Both the position numbers and the translations under genes were made by a program. This document shows, piece after piece, positions 1 to 7,550 of a stretch of DNA of 64,000 nucleotides; position 1 is the stretch's first letter; every line of letters starts with the position of its first letter. The notes beneath the pieces were generated by a model. That model saw nothing but the letters and a program-made list of their open reading frames with translations. It was not told the DNA's origin and ran no database searches. The stretch comes from Escherichia phage EcSzw-2: sequence record MH791400.1; one strand, given 5' to 3'.

Positions 1-50
1 AACATCCTCTTAAAAGCTCTGTATAGCTCTGTATAGCCTCTTTTAAGCCC
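1..50. repeat. ~50-bp direct repeat, copy 1 (copy 2 at ~3641-3690); contains internal tandem GCTCTGTATA x2
   Basis: aacatcctcttaaaagctctgtatagctctgtatagcctcttttaagcc recurs essentially identically at ~3641-3690. Confidence 0.8.
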
Positions 51-99
51 CTTGTAAGGTAACTATAGCCCAAGTAACTGTAAAGGGCTTTACAGGGCT

Positions 100-240
100 T
101 TATAGGGGCTTTAAAGGGTATGCCAAGTTGACTAACAAGGATTTAACAAGGTCTTAACAATGATTTAACATACCCCTAACAAGGGTAACTATGCAGGAGT
201 TGTTAAGAATTTGTTAAGAAAATGTTAAGGGGGCTAGCAT
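100..240. repeat. array of TAACAAG / CTTAACA heptamers in direct then inverted orientation (candidate protein-binding array)
   Basis: taacaag at ~134,147,175 plus ttaacaa/ttaacat variants; inverted copies tgttaag x3 at ~200-235; far above chance for a 7-mer. Confidence 0.6.
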
Positions 241-719
241 TTACGTAACTTTTAAGCCACTTTTAAGCAACTTTATAGCCCCTATAACATACTTTTANNN
301 AGACAATAACAAGCCCTTTTTAGTAGTTCACAAGGGACTAACGAGATGATAAAGCTTGATACCTTATAAGATTCTTTTAAGGCCATAGAAAGCTCTATAA
401 ATGGCTTTTAAGAGTGGGTTAATATGATTGCTTAAGTTAGGTTGATAAGCTGTTATAGGGCTTTATAGAGCGTTTTAGAGGGTTGCCCTCCCCTTTGGGT
501 TATGGGCTTATATTTAAGTTGATTTGATAAGATGATATAGAGTAAGCTATAGAGTTATTATTTTTAAGGTCTGGTAAGATTCTCTAAGAGTCTGCATAGG
601 GATTGCATAGACGTAAAAAAGCCCCTATGAGATAGATTCTATGAAGGTAATTCATTACCTGAATNAGAAAGGGGCTGTTAAGGTATCTGGGGCTATTTTA
701 GCCCCGTTGCGGCGTCTCG

Positions 720-968
720 TTAGTTATGACCGTCCTTGTCATAGTAAAGAGAAATGATTTTATCGTTCCAATAGTGCCAATGATTACCATCTTTCACCGC
801 CTCTTGGATAGCTGCAATCCAAAAATCCGATTCAGGGTTATAATCCTTGACAATCTGGCTAACAAGGCTTTTCACCATATCAAAAGCACTATCTGTACTG
901 ATAATGTCAAATTTAACATCCAGTGAGTAAAAACCATATTCGTTAACAGTTGCGCGGATAGTTGCCAT
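720..968 (-). CDS. hypothetical early protein (82 aa)
   Basis: ORF directly preceded by conserved promoter/leader cassette ending ...CCTAAACTGGAGAaTCAAAG-ATG. Confidence 0.65.
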   Translation of the reverse strand: MATIRATVNEYGFYSLDVKFDIISTDSAFDMVKSLVSQIVKDYNPESDFWIAAIQEAVKDGNHWHYWNDKIISLYYDKDGHN

Positions 969-1055
969 CTTTGATTCTCCAGTTTAGGATTGATTTGGTA
1001 AAGCTCTTTATCTGGGGCTTATACTATCGAACTATAAACCCCTTGTAAAGCACTT
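969..1055 (-). promoter_or_regulatory. early promoter + conserved leader/RBS cassette, type A (TTTACA-N17-TAGTAT, GGAG RBS)
   Basis: On minus strand: TTTACA (~1044-1049), 17-bp spacer, TAGTAT (~1021-1026), then leader aagccccagataaagag...cctaaactggag; inverted repeat ggggtttata/tataagcccc brackets the -10. Confidence 0.6.
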
Positions 1056-1253
1056 TTAATACATTTTATCGAATAACTGGTTTATTGCAGCAACTGCATG
1101 ATTTTTAAAGTTTAAGTTGTTAGTGTTATCAGAAAACACTACTTCAGTGTTGTAAGTGATTTCTAGTGATACAAACGAACCATTTACATTTAAAGAATAG
1201 GATACACCTTTTAAGCACCACAAGGTAGACAGCTTTTGCATTAAATCTTTCAT
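1056..1253 (-). CDS. hypothetical early protein (65 aa)
   Basis: ORF preceded by type B promoter/leader cassette with GGAG RBS. Confidence 0.6.
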   Translation of the reverse strand: MKDLMQKLSTLWCLKGVSYSLNVNGSFVSLEITYNTEVVFSDNTNNLNFKNHAVAAINQLFDKMY

Positions 1254-1330
1254 CTTGAATCTCCAGTTTAGGAAGTAAGCTTGATTGCTTGATAGATACT
1301 ATAGGGCTTTTAGAAAGTGATTGCAAGCCC
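1254..1330 (-). promoter_or_regulatory. early promoter + leader cassette, type B (TTGCAA-N17-TATAGT)
   Basis: Minus strand: TTGCAA (~1321-1326), 17 bp, TATAGT (~1298-1303), leader ...cttcctaaactggagattcaag-ATG; promoter spacer can form hairpin agggctt/aagccct. Confidence 0.55.
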
Positions 1331-1454
1331 TTTTTAGTCTTATCTATAAAGAATCTTTTAAGTGATTCCTTTTAGATAAAACCCCCTCGAACAAATGTAC
1401 TATTGTCAAGGGGTATCGTCAAGTAATTTTTGAAAGTTTTTTGTAAGTTGTTGA

Positions 1455-1796
1455 TTAACTTATAAAGATTTTTTCAGGCTTGACGTAGTTCATTTTTTGG
1501 CCTTTAAGTAAATCACTCCAGATTAAAGCGGCAATGTGACCATAACCGGATTCACGTAGCGCTTTCATCGTGTTGACTTTTGTTTCAAATCGTGTTGCGT
1601 AGTATTCACTGTTAAGGGTTGTTTTGTTCCCTTCATTGTCTGTATGAATGATTTGCATCACATGAAACGGGCTAACATCCTCTCCGAGATTCCATTGCTC
1701 AAAGTATTTTAAACACTGCATAGGCGACATATTATCACTGACTCGTGTAGACCATGATGAATTTTCTTTATCGGTAATTACGGTTACATGTGCCAT
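1455..1796 (-). CDS. hypothetical early protein (113 aa)
   Basis: ORF with upstream conserved cassette and GGAG RBS. Confidence 0.65.
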   Translation of the reverse strand: MAHVTVITDKENSSWSTRVSDNMSPMQCLKYFEQWNLGEDVSPFHVMQIIHTDNEGNKTTLNSEYYATRFETKVNTMKALRESGYGHIAALIWSDLLKGQKMNYVKPEKIFIS

Positions 1797-1870
1797 CTTT
1801 GAATCTCCAGTTTAGGAAAGCTCTTTATCTGGGGCTTATGGTATCAAGCTTTTAAGCCCCTTGTANTTGT
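1797..1870 (-). promoter_or_regulatory. early promoter + leader cassette, type A variant (ambiguous base at 1866 in the -35 region)
   Basis: Conserved leader aagccccagataaagagctttcctaaactggagattcaa; -10-like TACCAT; hairpin-capable ggggcttat...ataagcccc. Confidence 0.5.
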
Positions 1871-2099
1871 AAATCTCTAAAAATTCATCTTCATTAACAT
1901 TTTCGTAGTATTCTGCGTTTTCGTCTTCACCTTGTAAGACATAGCAGCCCATTCTAGACGATTTCGGGTATTCTTGTCTAGCAATATTGCAAGCTTCTAC
2001 CGCGTTTTGTTTAGTTCCTTCAAAGGATTCTAAAACCCCATAATGGCAATTATTAGCCCCAGAGCATACAGCAAGCATGAGATAGATTGTAGTTAACAT
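1836..2099 (-). CDS. hypothetical protein with N-terminal hydrophobic signal-like segment (87 aa; 3' end reads through the downstream promoter cassette and the ambiguous base)
   Basis: ORF; N-terminus MLTTIYLMLAVCSGANNC is signal-peptide-like; no own cassette, probably co-transcribed with the upstream 185-aa gene. Confidence 0.45.
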   Translation of the reverse strand: MLTTIYLMLAVCSGANNCHYGVLESFEGTKQNAVEACNIARQEYPKSSRMGCYVLQGEDENAEYYENVNEDEFLEIYXYKGLKSLIP

Positions 2100-2162
2100 G
2101 ATTTAAGCCCCTTGCAAGCCCCTATGCGGGGCTTTTTAATGTTGTTAGTGTGATTGTATGGT

Positions 2163-2720
2163 TTACGCTAAAACGTCGTTTACAGTGCTTTCTGTTAAGC
2201 TTTCCTGCATTGCGTCTAGCATGTTGCAATAGATAATTGAACTATCATCAGTATTTTGAATAAAGCTTGCAACTTCTTCAAGTTTTTCATCAACATAGCC
2301 TAAATTTGGATTTTTTAAGTTAGGTACAAAAAACGGTGAATACATAGAGTTAAATTCTGTGATGTAAACCTTTTTAATCCAATCTTTATCAAAAGATTCT
2401 GTAAAGCTTGCGATATCACTCATATTTTCACAAGACCAATCATCTTGCAATTCATATTCTGGAATGTCAAGTTCTAAGATAACAATATTTTGGGTTTTCA
2501 TCTGAAAAGCTGCTGTGATTGTAGCACTATCAAGAGCATTGCGTAAACCTTCATTAGTAATTTCTTCAGCATTCATAGAATCAAGGTCATAGAATTTATT
2601 AACAGGGTAAACGTAAAAACAACCATCACTATCAGAGCAATTCCAAGCGCCTGATGGTTTATCACCGCCATTGATGAGGTTTACAAAGTTTTCTTGAGTA
2701 GTACCGTGAAAGCATTTCAT
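2163..2720 (-). CDS. hypothetical early protein (185 aa)
   Basis: ORF preceded by conserved leader/RBS (promoter part diverged or truncated; n at 2773). Confidence 0.65.
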   Translation of the reverse strand: MKCFHGTTQENFVNLINGGDKPSGAWNCSDSDGCFYVYPVNKFYDLDSMNAEEITNEGLRNALDSATITAAFQMKTQNIVILELDIPEYELQDDWSCENMSDIASFTESFDKDWIKKVYITEFNSMYSPFFVPNLKNPNLGYVDEKLEEVASFIQNTDDSSIIYCNMLDAMQESLTESTVNDVLA

Positions 2721-2775
2721 TTTGAATCTCCAGTTTAGGATTGATTTGGTAAATCTCTTTATCTGGGGCTATNAA
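2721..2775 (-). promoter_or_regulatory. conserved leader/RBS cassette (type A, truncated promoter part)
   Basis: ttgaatctccagtttaggattgatttggtaaatctctttatctggggctat matches the other cassettes. Confidence 0.5.
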
Positions 2776-2849
2776 ATTTGGATTCACTCCGTTCATCTTG
2801 GGTCACCATATCATGTGATAAAATATCTACCCTTCTTAACAGCCTACTT

Positions 2850-3010
2850 AATCTTACTCTCTATATATATATAGTTATATAGTACTATATAGTATCTTAG
2901 TCCCTTAACAGTGAGTCTCTATAGCCCTCTGTATAACCCTTCTATAAAGCCCTATAAGCATCCCTCTTCCAAACCTATACAATCACCTTAACCATCTCTT
3001 CATAGCCCCT
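2850..3010. repeat. phased (~10-11 bp) CTATA(G/A) / TATATAG short repeats in noncoding AT-rich DNA
   Basis: ctatatatatatagttatatagtactatatagtatc...ctctatagccctctgtataacccttctataaagccctataagc; helical-period spacing suggests intrinsic bending. Confidence 0.5.
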
Positions 3011-3349
3011 TAGAAGCCCCTATACCCATCTTAATCTCTATGTCAGAGATAGTACCCTCTATAGGGTGTTCACTAGGTTCTACTAATCCTCTNGTTGTTC
3101 TTAAGAATCAACCTCTTAGGCTTATCCTACAAGGTCTAACACGTTATTAACAAGGTATCTTATAAGCCTGTATTTACCTGTTTTATACAGAATACTATAT
3201 AGATATTTATGCAATTCTTAAAATTTTTATAAAATAGAACTGTCAAGTCATTTTTTAGGGTCTTGAGAGCAACTCAAAAATATCTGTTTAGGATGTATAT
3301 CTGCTTGGTAGCCCTTAACAGCCTTGTAACATACCCTTTGCAAAATTTT

Positions 3350-3600
3350 AAAATATCATTAACAAATTCTTAACAACTCTATCAATCTCTTAACATCTCT
3401 TCAAAGGTCTTAACAGATTCTTAACAGGACTAACAAGGGTGTAACAGTTATTTAACAAGTGCTACATAGTCTTTACAGAATCTTAACAGATGACTAACAA
3501 GAGCTAACAAGTTAATTTTAAAGGGTTATTTTGTTAAGATAATTAACAAGTTCCTAACAAGTGTTTAATCCTTTTAACAAGCTGTTAACATGGTCACTAT
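3350..3600. repeat. dense array of (C)TTAACA(A/G)(G) repeats, ~15 copies, ~11-22 bp spacing
   Basis: tcttaacaactc, tcttaacatctc, gtcttaacagattcttaacaggactaacaagggtgtaacag...tttaacaagtg...gactaacaagagctaacaag...ttaacaagttcctaacaagtg...tttaacaagctgttaacatgg. Confidence 0.7.
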
Positions 3601-3640
3601 CTCTTCTCTTCTCGTTCCCTTAACTTCTCAGTGAATCTCT

Positions 3641-3690
3641 AAACATCCTCTTAAAAGCTCTGTATAGCTCTGTATAGCCTCTTTTAAGCC
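3641..3690. repeat. ~50-bp direct repeat, copy 2 (matches window positions 1-50)
   Basis: aaacatcctcttaaaagctctgtatagctctgtatagcctcttttaagcc. Confidence 0.8.
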
Positions 3691-3935
3691 NTAGTTTTCT
3701 TTGAGAAAATTAGTTTAACTGCAACCGTGGGAAGTTCTTCAATACTTGTAAAAAGCGTTACCTTTTGAGTAACAACCTTGTAACCATTTTTTGCAGCGTA
3801 TGCCGTGAAACGATTAACCGTATAACTATAAGTTTTTGATGTGTTGTCTGACATATGGTACAAATAGGGCTTGCCTAAATTTTGAGATTGTGTTAACAGT
3901 CGGCAAGTATCAGGAACGTTTAAATAATTAAGCAT
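3684..3935 (-). CDS. hypothetical early protein (83 aa; 3' end overlaps repeat copy 2 and ambiguous base 3691)
   Basis: ORF preceded by type B promoter/leader cassette. Confidence 0.55.
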   Translation of the reverse strand: MLNYLNVPDTCRLLTQSQNLGKPYLYHMSDNTSKTYSYTVNRFTAYAAKNGYKVVTQKVTLFTSIEELPTVAVKLIFSKKTXA

Positions 3936-4020
3936 TTAGATTCTCCAGTTTAGGAAGTGGGATTGCTTGCCCGTCTGATAAGTAATTTAAGCTATTTAAA
4001 AACCAGTGTCAATAGATTTT
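3936..4020 (-). promoter_or_regulatory. early promoter + leader cassette, type B (TTGACA-N17-TAAATT)
   Basis: Minus strand TTGACA (~4007-4012), 17 bp, TAAATT (~3984-3989), leader acttatcagacgggcaagcaatcccacttcctaaactggagaatctaa-ATG. Confidence 0.55.
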
Positions 4021-4425
4021 TTAAAGTTCTGCGTAAATTGCATCACAGATATCACGAAAATCATAGCTTGTCAAGTTACGTTGTAACCATGTTGCGAAAA
4101 AATCAGCTATTGCAAAATTTGCATCATACTCAACAGATAACCACACTTTTACAGCAAATCGAAACATTTTCAAGTCAAGTTCTTTATTCATTACTTTTGA
4201 TTTGCCTAACATGTCAACCATTTCATATTGTGCGCCGTCAAGTGTAACACCTGATGCAACATTTGCAAGTGAATTTTTTACGCTTTCAACGTCTAAGATT
4301 GCACCTTGAATCTTTCCGATAATGTTATGCAGTGTTTCGTCTGGTGCTGCTGATGTAATTACGTTGATGCGATTAACGGTCAAACGTGCTTTCAGGATTG
4401 CAGTGTCACGAGTATTCATAGCCAT
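4021..4425 (-). CDS. hypothetical early protein (134 aa)
   Basis: ORF with type A cassette and GGAG RBS upstream. Confidence 0.65.
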   Translation of the reverse strand: MAMNTRDTAILKARLTVNRINVITSAAPDETLHNIIGKIQGAILDVESVKNSLANVASGVTLDGAQYEMVDMLGKSKVMNKELDLKMFRFAVKVWLSVEYDANFAIADFFATWLQRNLTSYDFRDICDAIYAEL

Positions 4426-4510
4426 TTTTAAATCTCCAGTTTAGGGGTTATCGATAAAATCTCTTTATCTGGGGCTATACTAGCAAACTTTATAACCCCA
4501 TGTAANAGAC
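4426..4510 (-). promoter_or_regulatory. early promoter + leader cassette, type A (TTACAT/TTTACA-N17-TAGTAT; n at 4506)
   Basis: Conserved cassette sequence; the -35 lies inside the 3' end of the upstream ORF. Confidence 0.55.
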
Positions 4511-4777
4511 TAAATACAACTTTTTCCCGTTAACAATGATGTAACTTACACCGCTATTGCTGTAAACATCTTGATAGATTCTGCGTAACTTGCCTGAATA
4601 GCGCACTTTCCAAGATGTAGGAATCTTTTTACCGTATCCGGTGGATGTTTTTTGTAAACCTGCTAATTGCCAATCTAAAATGTGTTGTTCTGCTGTTAAC
4701 TCTTCAAAGTTTAATACGCCGTCTACATAGTGCTTTAAAGTAACGTTTAAGGTGTGACCATTATTTGTAGTATACAT
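4490..4777 (-). CDS. hypothetical early protein (95 aa)
   Basis: ORF preceded by type B cassette. Confidence 0.6.
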   Translation of the reverse strand: MYTTNNGHTLNVTLKHYVDGVLNFEELTAEQHILDWQLAGLQKTSTGYGKKIPTSWKVRYSGKLRRIYQDVYSNSGVSYIIVNGKKLYLVXYMGL

Positions 4778-4870
4778 TTTGAATCTCCAGTTTAGGAAGT
4801 GGGCTTGCTTGCCCGTCTGATAAGTAATTTACTTGTTTCCGTTACCAGTTGCAAGCCCTTTTTAGAAATT
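4778..4870 (-). promoter_or_regulatory. early promoter + leader cassette, type B (TTGCAA-N17-TAAATT)
   Basis: ctaaaaagggcttgcaactggtaacggaaacaagtaaattacttatcagacgggcaagcaagcccacttcctaaactggag on the minus strand. Confidence 0.55.
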
Positions 4871-5193
4871 TATTTCCGTTTGCTTATCTCGTGAACAATA
4901 ACAGCGTGATAATCTTTCAAATTACTAATATTTAAAGCATTTAGTAAAGCATTATAATCATCAACTAACTGAAAATCACCGCTTAGAATGTCACTAACCT
5001 GATATGTGTTAGCCTTGAATCTGAAGCCCATCTCTAAACGCTTTAATTGTTCTACGTTTAAACGCTCTAGAAAGGACGTCACAAGGTTATTATTGATTTG
5101 CCTTGTGATTGCATCACTTGCCGCCTGATGCGCTTTATAGGCTTTATACAGTGCTAAAATAGCAATAAATAAGGCAACTCCAGAAATTAGCAT
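4870..5193 (-). CDS. hypothetical membrane protein (107 aa, N-terminal TM helix)
   Basis: ORF; N-terminus MLISGVALFIAILALYKAY is hydrophobic; start overlaps stop of upstream ORF (ATGCTAA), so translationally coupled. Confidence 0.6.
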   Translation of the reverse strand: MLISGVALFIAILALYKAYKAHQAASDAITRQINNNLVTSFLERLNVEQLKRLEMGFRFKANTYQVSDILSGDFQLVDDYNALLNALNISNLKDYHAVIVHEISKRK

Positions 5194-5483
5194 GATGATT
5201 TACCTTTATGAAATAGTTTACCAGTGTGACTAATCTCAAAAGAATCTATCATATCTTTTGTTGATTTAACAGAACTTTTATTTGCATTGTCATAGATATC
5301 TACCTGAAGCAATGGCTTTTTGTATTCTTTACAAAAGTTCCAAATACAGACAACAACTTCTTTACCATTGATTTTTCCGTGATACCATTCTGTTACTTCA
5401 TGAGTACGGCGCATAGATTCTACAAATTTGATATCTTGTAAAAGTTTGCTCAACTTGGAACGTACATTTGCAGCAATAAACAT
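5187..5483 (-). CDS. hypothetical early protein (98 aa)
   Basis: ORF with type A cassette upstream. Confidence 0.65.
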   Translation of the reverse strand: MFIAANVRSKLSKLLQDIKFVESMRRTHEVTEWYHGKINGKEVVVCIWNFCKEYKKPLLQVDIYDNANKSSVKSTKDMIDSFEISHTGKLFHKGKSSC

Positions 5484-5573
5484 TTTAGAATCTCCAGTTT
5501 AGGATTGATTTGGTAAATCTCTTTATCTGGGGCTATNCTTATCAACCTGATAACCCCATGTAAAGCAATTTAT
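5484..5573 (-). promoter_or_regulatory. early promoter + leader cassette, type A (n at 5537)
   Basis: TTTACA-N17-TAAGnA plus conserved leader and GGAG RBS. Confidence 0.5.
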
Positions 5574-6086
5574 TTAGATATCAAAAATATTCATCATTAA
5601 ATCTTTCAAGGCTTCTAAACGTTCCATGACTTCAGATTCTGCGTCTGCGTTGCTTACTTCCTCTTTTAGTCTATCCTCTAAATCGTCGCCGTCGCTATAG
5701 CACCAATCAAAGGCATATCCAAGATAAAAACTATCTAAAACCGTGTTTCCGTTTGCAGCTACAACTTTTGCAGATAGGCTATATTCTGAAGCCTCTAAAT
5801 CCCTTTCTAGTTCTTTCTGTAAGCTGATGTAAGCCTCTCGTGATGGATTTTCCCGGCCTTGTTTTGCATAGTCGCTAGAAAGCTGTTTAAGGCTATAGCG
5901 TAAAGGGATTGCATATTCAAATTCATTACGTTGATAGTTAGGATTCTTAATAGTTACCCCGCCTTGATGGTTGTTTGTAAATTCCCAATCACTGATGTTA
6001 TGGCTTGCTTCATAGCAGTTAACAGCTTCATATATGATAGAGAATTTCTCTTTTACAACTTCAAAGGTAGCGTCTACAGTTTTCAT
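5574..6086 (-). CDS. hypothetical early protein (170 aa)
   Basis: ORF with type A cassette upstream. Confidence 0.65.
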   Translation of the reverse strand: MKTVDATFEVVKEKFSIIYEAVNCYEASHNISDWEFTNNHQGGVTIKNPNYQRNEFEYAIPLRYSLKQLSSDYAKQGRENPSREAYISLQKELERDLEASEYSLSAKVVAANGNTVLDSFYLGYAFDWCYSDGDDLEDRLKEEVSNADAESEVMERLEALKDLMMNIFDI

Positions 6087-6171
6087 TTTGAATCTCCAGT
6101 TTAGGATTGATTGTAAAGCTCTTTATCTGGGGCTTATATTAGCAACTCATAAACCCCATGTAAAGCACTTT
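6087..6171 (-). promoter_or_regulatory. early promoter + leader cassette, type A (TTTACA-N17-TAATAT)
   Basis: Minus strand TTTACA (~6159-6164), 17 bp, TAATAT (~6136-6141), then conserved leader and GGAG RBS. Confidence 0.6.
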
Positions 6172-6429
6172 TTAGATTAAATTTGCAGTTAATGCCAAGT
6201 GCATTTTATAACCTTGTATAGTGTAAACATTGGTTTTACCAATAGTCTTTACACCTTTGAAAAGGTTGTAAGAGTTATGCTTTAAGTTTAATTGCTTGTC
6301 ACACTTTACGCCCCATCTTACAGCAGAATCTTTCCCGTTGTCAATCACTTTTCCGTCTAAATCTTTTGCCAGTAAACGAGCGTTATCACGAGTTTTTGCA
6401 TTAACTACTACGTTTTTGATGATAGCCAT
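6172..6429 (-). CDS. hypothetical early protein (85 aa)
   Basis: ORF with type A cassette upstream. Confidence 0.65.
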   Translation of the reverse strand: MAIIKNVVVNAKTRDNARLLAKDLDGKVIDNGKDSAVRWGVKCDKQLNLKHNSYNLFKGVKTIGKTNVYTIQGYKMHLALTANLI

Positions 6430-6518
6430 TTTTGAATCTCCAGTTTAGGGGTTATTGATAAAATCTCTTTATCTGGGGCTTATACTATCGAACTATAAAC
6501 CCCCTGTAAAGCACTTTA
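6430..6518 (-). promoter_or_regulatory. early promoter + leader cassette, type A (TTTACA-N17-TAGTAT)
   Basis: Near-identical to the cassette at 969-1055. Confidence 0.6.
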
Positions 6519-6899
6519 TTAGCTAATTTTAAAGATAGTCACATAGCCATCACTACCAATCATCTGAGAAACACCAGCTTTCTCGACATTGTAACCCATT
6601 TTATCAAGATGGTAAATTGCATCTTCATAGCCGTAGGCATCACCTTGATAACGTCTCTTCTCACATTTTATCAAGGTTTTACCACGTCCAGCAAGTGCAT
6701 TAATGATAGCTTTATCACCTGATAAACTACCATCTAACATAGTTGCGCGATAATGGTTTATTTTGTTGCCATTTACATCATACTTAAAATTATATGCGTG
6801 AACAACAATTATTTTACCTTTGAATTTTTCATCAAGTGTTTTCTCCAGTACATCGCGGAAGTTTTCTTTATTGATGAATTTAGGCGCACGATATTTCAT
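6519..6899 (-). CDS. hypothetical early protein (126 aa)
   Basis: ORF with type A cassette upstream. Confidence 0.65.
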   Translation of the reverse strand: MKYRAPKFINKENFRDVLEKTLDEKFKGKIIVVHAYNFKYDVNGNKINHYRATMLDGSLSGDKAIINALAGRGKTLIKCEKRRYQGDAYGYEDAIYHLDKMGYNVEKAGVSQMIGSDGYVTIFKIS

Positions 6900-6980
6900 T
6901 TTGAATCTCCAGTTTAGGATTGATTATAAAGCTCTTTATCTGGGGCTTATGGTATCAAGCTTTTAAGCCCCTTGTANGCA
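6900..6980 (-). promoter_or_regulatory. early promoter + leader cassette, type A variant (n at 6977)
   Basis: Same variant as 1797-1870 (ggggcttatggtatcaagcttttaagcccc). Confidence 0.5.
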
Positions 6981-7135
6981 ATAATTTTTATAACTTCTTT
7001 TAGTGTGATGTTTTCGCCATTTGTCAAGGCTAAACATTTGTTACCAGTGCATGACAAGTAACTAAACGAGACTTTACCAGTTTTAGAAAATCCGTCAAGC
7101 CCTTTGTAAGTGATGATAGAGTTTTCTTTTATCAT
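6947..7135 (-). CDS. hypothetical small protein (62 aa; C-terminus reads through the downstream cassette)
   Basis: ORF directly follows the 84-aa ORF without its own cassette; probably co-transcribed. Confidence 0.4.
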   Translation of the reverse strand: MIKENSIITYKGLDGFSKTGKVSFSYLSCTGNKCLALTNGENITLKEVIKIIXYKGLKSLIP

Positions 7136-7146
7136 TCATCAAGCCC

Positions 7147-7401
7147 TTAAACGTCATAATAGTAAATTGCAGTATGTCTAATATGCTTTCTTGTGTGAGT
7201 TGTCAAGTAACAATCTGAATTAATTGACGTGTTTACATATGTATCATAATCTTTCTCTGATATACGTTGCCACACATCACAAATTAGCATATAAAAGCGA
7301 CGATGTTTAGTCTCAGTATTATCTACAATCATTAACTCACGTTGATATAACATTTTGAATCTCCAGTTTAGGAAGTGGTCTTGTTTGCCCGTCTGATGCA
7401 A
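7147..7401 (-). CDS. hypothetical early protein (84 aa), first gene of the early array
   Basis: ORF with type B promoter/leader upstream. Confidence 0.6.
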   Translation of the reverse strand: MHQTGKQDHFLNWRFKMLYQRELMIVDNTETKHRRFYMLICDVWQRISEKDYDTYVNTSINSDCYLTTHTRKHIRHTAIYYYDV

Positions 7402-7460
7402 ATACTAAATAACTTTGTTTTGCAGGTCAAGCAAATTTTTAAAAATATTTTCAGGAATTG
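7402..7460 (-). promoter_or_regulatory. early promoter + leader, type B (TTGACC-N17-TAGTAT)
   Basis: Minus strand: ttgacc tgcaaaacaaagttatt tagtat ttgcatcagacgggcaaacaag... Confidence 0.55.
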
Positions 7461-7550
7461 CCAGAGATGAACGGGCGCACGACTACCACAAAACATAGCA
7501 CAAATCAAGAATTATTTTTCAGTTCTCTACAGATTTTTCTCTTGACTTTT

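Follow-up and report, generated by a model that had tools for sequence, protein, structure and literature searches.

A 49-nucleotide direct repeat at the start of a draft Suspvirus scaffold is most probably the leftover overlap of two misordered assembly pieces

The 64-kb window (the whole stretch of DNA analysed here) is a draft scaffold of a Suspvirus (Felix O1-like) phage, with its pieces joined by Ns. It opens with a 49-nt sequence, R, that recurs in the same orientation 3.6 kb downstream. The pair is genuine in the sequence file, where it is well beyond chance, but it is very unlikely to belong to the phage DNA itself. Judged from the order of the surrounding blocks here and in relatives, the two copies are most probably the leftover overlap of two assembly pieces that were joined in the wrong order. 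The case is a caution regarding draft, N-joined phage records of the kind that GenBank flags as UNVERIFIED: if the first 3.7 kb is mis-ordered, as it appears to be, duplications, termini and gene order inferred from that stretch would be wrong. A by-product of the analysis is that the real terminal repeat of the phage can be placed, by homology, at 3307-3690 plus 50-234.

The repeated 49-mer and the ends of assembly pieces

R (AACATCCTCTTAAAAGCTCTGTATAGCTCTGTATAGCC TCTTTTAAGCC) occupies positions 1-49 and 3642-3690 on the same strand with 100% identity, and the starts of its copies are 3641 nt apart. Copy 1 is followed by C at position 50 and copy 2 by N at position 3691, and beyond R the flanks of the two copies are wholly different. 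When up to three mismatches are allowed, these remain the only two matches in the 64 kb, and none was found in 100 dinucleotide-preserving shuffles. R contains a 10-bp tandem duplication (AGCTCTGTAT, 2.3 copies). Upstream of copy 2 lie YTAACR hexamers or heptamers (3359-3590) at spacings of about 11, 20, 22 and 31 bp, and downstream of copy 1 lie arrays of GGGCTTTAnAG and TTAACAAG (81-229); the remaining array members are just 61-68% identical to R. An earlier note on this DNA had described a direct repeat at 1-50 and about 3641-3690, with its first copy at the exact window start and a short-repeat array beside each copy. The pair, its orientation, its complete identity, the start at position 1 and both arrays are borne out, and the coordinates are corrected by one base.

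Both copies of R stand at the ends of pieces (Table 1). Copy 1 is the prefix of the piece 1-297, which begins the window, and copy 2 is the suffix of the piece 3094-3690, which is followed by N3691. The three longest exact repeats of the window are all 49 nt in length (1/3642, 1817/6928 and 2724/5488), each of them runs up to an N or to the window start, and the fourth-ranking exact repeat has 39 nt. In the same early-gene region of finished relatives, exact repeats of 50-77 nt occur (77, 63, 58, 56 and 53 nt). A ceiling of 49 nt here, against 50-77 nt in the finished relatives, indicates the k-mer overlap limit of the assembler, and its occurrence at piece ends suggests that k − 1 was 49. Ns also mark both junctions that bound the moved block, at N2773 (between B′ and X) and N3691 (between R and C).

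Table 1 Features of the first 8 kb of the window and of a control repeat
Feature	Position	Strand	Basis or context
R copy 1	1-49	+	Starts the first piece (1-297); exact match to 3642-3690; prefix of an N-delimited piece
D, right-hand 185 nt of the terminal repeat	50-234	+	Record starts of Pr103Blw, Ro111lw and SeKF_63 map to 234
Conserved non-coding, from the terminal repeat to the first minus-strand early gene	235-719		Aligned with Felix O1, Michonne, SUSP2 and EP1
B′, five small early genes	720-968, 1056-1253, 1455-1796, 1836-2099, 2163-2720	-	Open reading frame list
49-mer identical to 5488-5536, then N2773	2724-2773	+	Probable false junction 1 (B′ to X)
X, conserved non-coding	2774-3306		In relatives: last plus-strand gene and terminator, X, left boundary of the terminal repeat
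A, left-hand 335 nt of the terminal repeat, full of phased YTAACR	3307-3641	+	Mapping of SeKF_63 and Pr103Blw
R copy 2 and N3691	3642-3691	+	Ends the piece 3094-3690; probable false junction 2 (R to C)
C, minus-strand early-gene block continued	3692-8000	-	Collinear with EcSzw_1 from its position 3125 on, at 100% identity
Control 49-mer identical to 6928-6976	1817-1866	+	N after each copy (1866, 6977)

Block order in EcSzw_1 and other relatives

The window is 99.3-100% identical to EcSzw_1 (MH791413.1), but its blocks are ordered differently. EcSzw_1 reads A-R-D-B′-NNNNNNN-C...Z-X and has one R; X forms the end of that record, after gene 132, and lies at the equivalent place in SUSP2 and EP1. 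EcSzw_1 also bears the UNVERIFIED flag and includes Ns, and it therefore cannot serve by itself as an independent reference; the finished relatives agree with it. SUSP2, EP1 and PC79-13 share the order Z-X-A-R-D-B′-C, and mistaenkt, for which the record begins just before the right boundary of the direct terminal repeat (DTR), confirms the B′-C part only. In window coordinates the natural order runs from X (2774-3306) through A (3307-3641), then R and D (50-234), to B′ (235-2772) and C (from 3692), relative to which the pieces X-A-R and R-D-B′ are exchanged in the window. In the natural order the two copies of R are one physical sequence.

Merging the two pieces on R yields 1588 nt, which align as one piece over 98-100% of their length in the best-matching relatives listed, including SUSP2 and EP1 (100% coverage and 90.6% identity in the latter). 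In 204 Ounavirinae records, one place covers at least 80% of this merged sequence. The homologue of R is present in one copy in nearly all of 203 records; in the two records with two copies among those listed, R lies about 200-250 nt from a record end. Of these two, SeKF_63 was examined, and its copies sit inside the terminal repeats at both record ends. In relatives, R runs unbroken into the equivalent of position 50 and beyond, and B′ is followed by a spacer of 37-40 nt and then directly by the equivalent of 3692. This spacer falls within a 77-nt exact repeat in mistaenkt, and its position in so long a repeat accounts for the unresolved gap between B′ and C. The strings that span the two probable false junctions were absent from IMG/VR in an exact scan with N as a wildcard.

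The second of these junctions also affects a gene. The first gene of C (3687-3935) lacks its natural last codons at junction 2 and matches phrog_9030 at positions 1-81/82; its conserved end is gone because of the junction. A look-up of the open reading frame across junction 2 (3684-3935) found no record. The open reading frame 3687-3935 has a sub-threshold Pfam match to Phage_int_SAM_4 (E = 0.0092, 16.8 bits against a cutoff of 27), which sits just outside the repeat-bounded segment. Within the segment, the five genes of B′ (720-2720) belong to PHROG families 4559, 13570, 4318, 4640 and 3303, none with a known function; no Pfam match of theirs reaches the gathering score, and they include no recombinase, and 235-719 contains no open reading frame of at least 50 amino acids. 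A mobile element with target duplication was rejected, as the segment carries no recombinase and its blocks are conserved in relatives.

The terminal repeat that contains R

The DTRs of several related phages have been defined: 608 bp in UAB_Phi87 by Bal31 digestion and run-off sequencing (PMC4837284), and 613 bp in Ro111lw (PMC6454146) and 581 bp in Pr103Blw (PMC8303462), both by PhageTerm. SeKF_63 has a 613-bp repeat at both ends of its record. We placed the DTR in the window by means of Pr103Blw, Ro111lw and SeKF_63; the GenBank records of UAB_Phi87 and Felix O1 begin elsewhere than at the physical ends and so do not place it directly. The right boundary falls after 234 (...TGTTAAGGGGGC/TAGC, with the slash at the boundary): position 234 is where, on the minus strand, the records of Pr103Blw (annotated DTR 1-581), Ro111lw and SeKF_63 begin, and the corresponding base of EcSzw_1 is an N. 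The left boundary falls before 3307 (CTGCTT/GGTAGCCCTTAACAG), to which both the record end of SeKF_63 and base 581 of Pr103Blw map, and the EcSzw_1 record starts at the equivalent of 3308. Both boundaries are invariant in alignments across Felixounavirus, Suspvirus and Mooglevirus, and the motif at the boundaries has the form GCCC(CC)TTAACA.

Taken together, 3307-3690 and 50-234 (about 569 bp) are homologous along their whole length to the defined DTRs, from which we infer that the phage probably packages its DNA with a DTR of about 569 bp made up of these two stretches. R would then be an internal segment of the DTR, at about positions 336-384, present once per terminal repeat in the real phage. 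Set against the DTRs of Felix O1-like phages (Ounavirinae), the R pair corresponds to one such internal segment written twice: its length is 49 nt where a DTR would have about 569 nt, and its copies are 3641 nt apart where about 86 kb would be expected.

The hexamer YTAACR occurs 20 times in the 569-nt DTR, about 30-fold more densely than in the rest of the window, and what had first been seen as heptamer arrays is the body of the DTR. Literature searches returned the lengths of DTRs in the family and nothing on the EcSzw phages. The DTR layout is a known family property; how its motifs are arranged internally seems to be undescribed, as the papers searched gave nothing on it. The terminal repeat of phage T7 is reportedly adjoined by arrays of short heptamer-like repeats. 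The present case is similar in that a short exact DTR goes together with a short motif (here YTAACR) repeated in phased arrays, but the motif and the phage family are different and the arrays lie inside the DTR. By analogy, this suggests that the YTAACR arrays may function, like those of T7, in recognising and processing concatemer junctions.

Origin of the pair and competing explanations

The duplication most probably arose as follows. The pieces ...X-A-R (3094-3690, after 2774-3092) and R-D-B′... (1-297 onward to 2772), neighbours in the natural order, share a 49-nt end, which would equal the fixed overlap length of the assembler. They would be expected to merge on this overlap to give X-A-R-D-B′; instead, they were probably concatenated with their order swapped, the X-A-R block filling the repeat gap left open between B′ and C. 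R would thereby have come to stand twice, at a distance of 3641 nt, and each false junction to bear an N; the presumed cause is a k-mer or unitig overlap combined with mis-ordering. One point counts against an artefact: because R is single-copy in the natural genome, a break of the de Bruijn graph at R would be unexpected. Heterogeneity in the copy number of the 10-bp tandem repeat in R was considered as the cause of this break and rejected, as it would not place the break at 3690.

A genuine rearrangement, in which X-A-R or R-D-B′ moved by recombination and the boundaries kept a 49-bp direct repeat as its trace, is very unlikely. The arrangement does stand so in the sequence as given, and the early region is full of repeated intergenic elements of about 100 nt that could in principle mediate recombination. 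However, R is not among these dispersed elements and is single-copy in nearly all relatives, both junctions consist of Ns rather than sequence, the length of 49 nt coincides with a technical ceiling, the conserved end of gene 3687-3935 is clipped, and EcSzw_1, at 99.3-100% identity, has the normal order. With the left (3307) and right (234) DTR boundaries parted, moreover, the terminal repeat of about 569 bp that is typical of the family could not be produced. That the arrangement as written is real, with a 3.6-kb transposition splitting the family terminal repeat between the bounds of a 49-bp duplication, is given a slightly smaller probability still; if true, it would imply another way of making genome ends, or that sequencing had picked up a subpopulation that was defective or rearranged.

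We hold it equally improbable that the copies of R are traces of the two terminal-repeat copies of linear virion DNA, and thus a partial but real terminal redundancy. R does lie in a region homologous to the DTRs of SeKF_63, Pr103Blw and Ro111lw, and records deposited with both DTR copies show R twice; yet in SeKF_63 these copies belong to a full 613-nt repeat at the record ends, about 90 kb apart, whereas here only 49 nt are repeated, at a distance of 3.6 kb, and the remainder of the DTR is split between A (3307-3641) and D (50-234). A chance or low-complexity match in AT-rich, repeat-rich non-coding DNA is the least likely explanation: short repeats of 10-11 bp abound in the region, and R carries one of its own, but the copies agree at 49 of 49 positions, the shuffles (n = 100) gave nothing comparable even at three mismatches, and the similarity of the other array members to R is far from identity. 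Of the origins proposed in the earlier note, a duplication or recombination boundary finds no support: relatives have a single R and all of the blocks, and only the order differs. A terminal-repeat or packaging element is right to the extent that R is internal to the family DTR of about 569 bp, but the pair itself is not terminal redundancy. The note had named a single-copy arrangement in related phages as part of what would refute it, and more than 200 of them do have R once, in the other block order; its third suggestion, an assembly artefact, is supported by the Ns at both junctions, the 49-nt ceiling, and the single R and different order in EcSzw_1 and the other relatives.

The misjoining of overlapping pieces, which we favour, has a familiar counterpart. 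In circular contigs from SPAdes or MEGAHIT, a terminal k-mer duplication represents the unmerged overlap of unitig ends in short-read de Bruijn assembly. The duplication of R is similar in that it has a fixed length, lies at piece ends, disappears on merging and is absent from independent genomes. It differs in that the pieces are not the two ends of one contig, but are swapped inside an N-joined scaffold, which puts the duplicate 3.6 kb away. The PC79-13 record carries an annotated 127-bp repeat_region at its end, which is probably an assembly leftover of the same class.

The 49-nt repeat and the N characters

The string AACATCC...TTTTAAGCC occurs twice on the same strand (block R in the table). 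This file-level repeat is correct because its copies are 100% identical, are the sole two matches in 64 kb with up to 3 mismatches allowed, and have no match at that tolerance in 100 dinucleotide-preserving shuffles, which excludes a chance match. The copies are followed by C (base 50) and N (base 3691), and beyond these the flanks are unrelated. The ~50-bp repeat of the earlier note is thus present in the described orientation and exact over 49 nt, with coordinates one base off; the short-repeat arrays that it placed beside each copy were recovered, with periods of 10–11 bp.

Window coordinates of the blocks, the exactly 49-nt pairs and example copies of the dispersed element
Feature	Coordinates	Remark
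R (copy 1)	1–49	
D	50–234	
B'	235–2772	
N	2773	
X	2774–3306	
A	3307–3641	
R (copy 2)	3642–3690	
N	3691	
C	3692 onward	
49-nt pair	1817–1865 = 6928–6976	N at 1866 and 6977
49-nt pair	2724–2772 = 5488–5536	N at 2773 and 5537
49-nt pair	1–49 = 3642–3690	window start; N at 3691
Dispersed element, e.g.	957–1056, 2708–2772, 4414–4513, 5472–5571, 6072–6171, 6418–6517	

All 11 N characters of the window (nine runs) lie within its first 7 kb and split it into ten pieces. Three identical pairs are exactly 49 nt long, each touching a piece end, and are the longest exact direct repeats in 64 kb (next longest, 39 nt); finished relatives have exact repeats of 77, 63, 58, 56, 53, 52 and 50 nt in the same early-gene region. 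A hard 49-nt ceiling that is always cut by an N is of the kind produced by an assembler whose word or overlap length is fixed at 49 nt, and would not be expected of natural repeats. For the pairs 1817/6928 and 2724/5488, both copies are piece suffixes entering a genuinely repeated element. For R, a prefix (copy 1) is paired with a suffix (copy 2), as happens when neighbouring pieces overlap by a fixed length; R is not a natural repeat, although a piece boundary falls there.

The NNN at 298–300 has no bases at the equivalent place in EcSzw_1, the near-identical sister record; N665 stands for 15 nt there and N3093 for 50 nt, where SUSP2, EP1 and Felix O1 have only ~26 nt. Because window Ns replace short stretches that are resolved in EcSzw_1, the window is, over the whole of its first 7 kb, a draft of lower quality. 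The record of PC79-13 (OR687644.2), marked circular, annotates a 127-bp repeat_region at its end (1–127), probably a second case of k-mer overlap left by an assembler (k = 127) and not biology.

Block order in the window and its relatives

Window 1–4200 matches 257 Ounavirinae phage records, best of all MH791413.1 ("UNVERIFIED: Escherichia phage EcSzw_1", Suspvirus, 86,813 bp; 99.5%). Identity to this record is 100% over window 3692–7200 and, in one piece, over 40001–64000; the NCBI names EcSzw1_5 and EcSzw2_5 belong to the exact protein of ORF 2166–2720(−), which is gene five counting from the window start.

The window is written R-D-B'-N-X-A-R-N-C. EcSzw_1 in GenBank reads A-R-D-B'-NNNNNNN-C...Z-X (Z, the last block before X), with a single R and with first and last bases equal to window 3308 and 3307; SUSP2, EP1 and PC79-13 read Z-X-A-R-D-B'-C. 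When the window pieces were joined on R (X-A-R-D and sequence up to 720; 1588 nt), the merged sequence gave one uninterrupted alignment over 100% of its length to EP1 and SUSP2, and was at least 80% covered in one place in 204 records (Felixounavirus, Suspvirus, Mooglevirus and others). R runs continuously into D in every genome of the multiple alignment. The comparison with relatives proposed in the earlier note therefore places the blocks in another order, with R present once in nearly all records (203 records, 217 places). Two records among the matches listed have two copies, with R ~200–250 nt from a record end; SeKF_63, the one examined, has a terminal repeat at both ends.

In mistaenkt, the record of which opens just before the right boundary of the direct terminal repeat (DTR), B' runs into C. 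The B'-to-C spacer of relatives (37–40 nt) is part of a dispersed intergenic element, and in mistaenkt this place is part of a 77-nt exact repeat, hence a gap in short-read assemblies. The gap holds NNNNNNN in EcSzw_1; in the window it holds the misplaced X-A-R block.

The predicted terminal repeat underlying R

Felix O1-like phages have short exact DTRs: 608 bp in UAB_Phi87 (Bal31 and run-off sequencing; PMC4837284), 613 bp in Ro111lw (PhageTerm; PMC6454146) and 581 bp in Pr103Blw (PhageTerm; PMC8303462), with short repeats inferred for Felix O1, method not stated (PMC3185647). The Pr103Blw record annotates its DTR at 1–581, and the two ends of the SeKF_63 record bear identical copies of 613 bp. 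The relatives' boundaries map to window 234/235 (...TGTTAAGGGGGC/TAGC) and 3306/3307 (CTGCTT/GGTAGCCCTTAAC), so that the DTR of the window phage would, by homology, comprise 3307–3690 and then 50–234, ~569 bp, with R as a predicted internal segment at about positions 336–384. EcSzw_1 opens one base from the 3306/3307 boundary and carries an N at its equivalent of 234/235. Judged by this homology, the sequence under R is the terminal repeat already known from Felix O1-like phages. The written window order separates the two boundaries and inverts their order, an arrangement from which no such repeat could be made.

In natural order the DTR has 20 copies of YTAACR in 569 nt (35 per kb, versus ~1.2 per kb in 8001–64000), at spacings of 11, 20, 22 and 31 bp that correspond to a helical phase of ~10.3–11 bp. 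Just inside the right boundary, at 200–229, the motif recurs in three inverted copies (TTGTTAAG). These motifs, which the alignment shows as largely conserved in Felixounavirus, Suspvirus and Mooglevirus, may act as a protein-wrapping packaging signal; no description of YTAACR-type DTR motifs was found in the searchable literature. GC(3-5)TTAACA occurs only twice in 64 kb, as an inverted pair bracketing the DTR: at 3311–3320 (+), 4 nt inside the left boundary, and at 223–234 (−), starting exactly at the right boundary. Neither boundary sequence varies in the eight-genome alignment, and we infer that the pair are candidate cut or nick sites. Non-coding X carries a conserved TATATAG-rich block (CTCTATATAGTTATATAGTACTATATAGTATCTTAG) at 2862–2895, ~420 nt outside the left boundary, with almost no variation across genomes from Felix O1 to Michonne.

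On the model of T7-type DTR phages, the concatemer junction would be recognised by terminase, which would make cuts at both DTR boundaries, with duplication of the DTR in the course of packaging. The scheme itself is general background (Casjens and Gilcrease, as cited in PMC4837284).

Origin of the written order

Behind the observed block order, Ns and 49-nt rule, we propose that the pieces ...X-A-R and R-D-B'... were due to be merged on their 49-nt overlap, and that they were instead concatenated with their order exchanged and with N spacers. X-A-R would have been placed where the repeat left B' and C unjoined, and the record would have come to start with R-D-B'. A genuine rearrangement in this phage is very unlikely, given that both junctions carry Ns, that the DTR is split and a gene clipped, that the 49-nt rule holds and that EcSzw_1 has the other order. 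All five genes of the 3.6-kb segment are small early genes of unknown function, with no recombinase among them, and neither junction string was found in exact scans of IMG/VR with N as a wildcard. That the R pair partially represents the two DTR copies is, if anything, less likely again, as it fails on both length and spacing. The 49-nt repeat is real in the file and very probably not a phage feature, and the practical message is that the record's first 3.7 kb are mis-ordered.

At junction 1 (B' to X, N2773), a truncated intergenic element ending ...GGGGCTAT is joined to X, the natural left neighbour of which is the terminator after the last plus-strand gene. Junction 2 (R to C, N3691) removes the natural end of the first gene of C, 3687–3935(−), and its reading frame passes N3691 into R copy 2 and acquires an artificial C-terminus. 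Its homologue in relatives is two codons longer with a conserved K-stop (...KKTK-stop in SUSP2), phrog_9030 matches it only over positions 1–81 of 82, and the homologous EcSzw_1 CDS (3114–3368) runs into the NNNNNNN gap.

The dispersed element (~100 nt, window 957–7400) precedes nearly every minus-strand early gene and reads CAT...GAATCTCCAGTTTAGGA...CTCTTTATCTGGGGCTAT... on the plus strand, with its core in 11 copies. It is the counterpart of the 57-bp repeats reported in Felix O1 (PMC3185647), and its copies are the sites of the assembly breaks and of most Ns.
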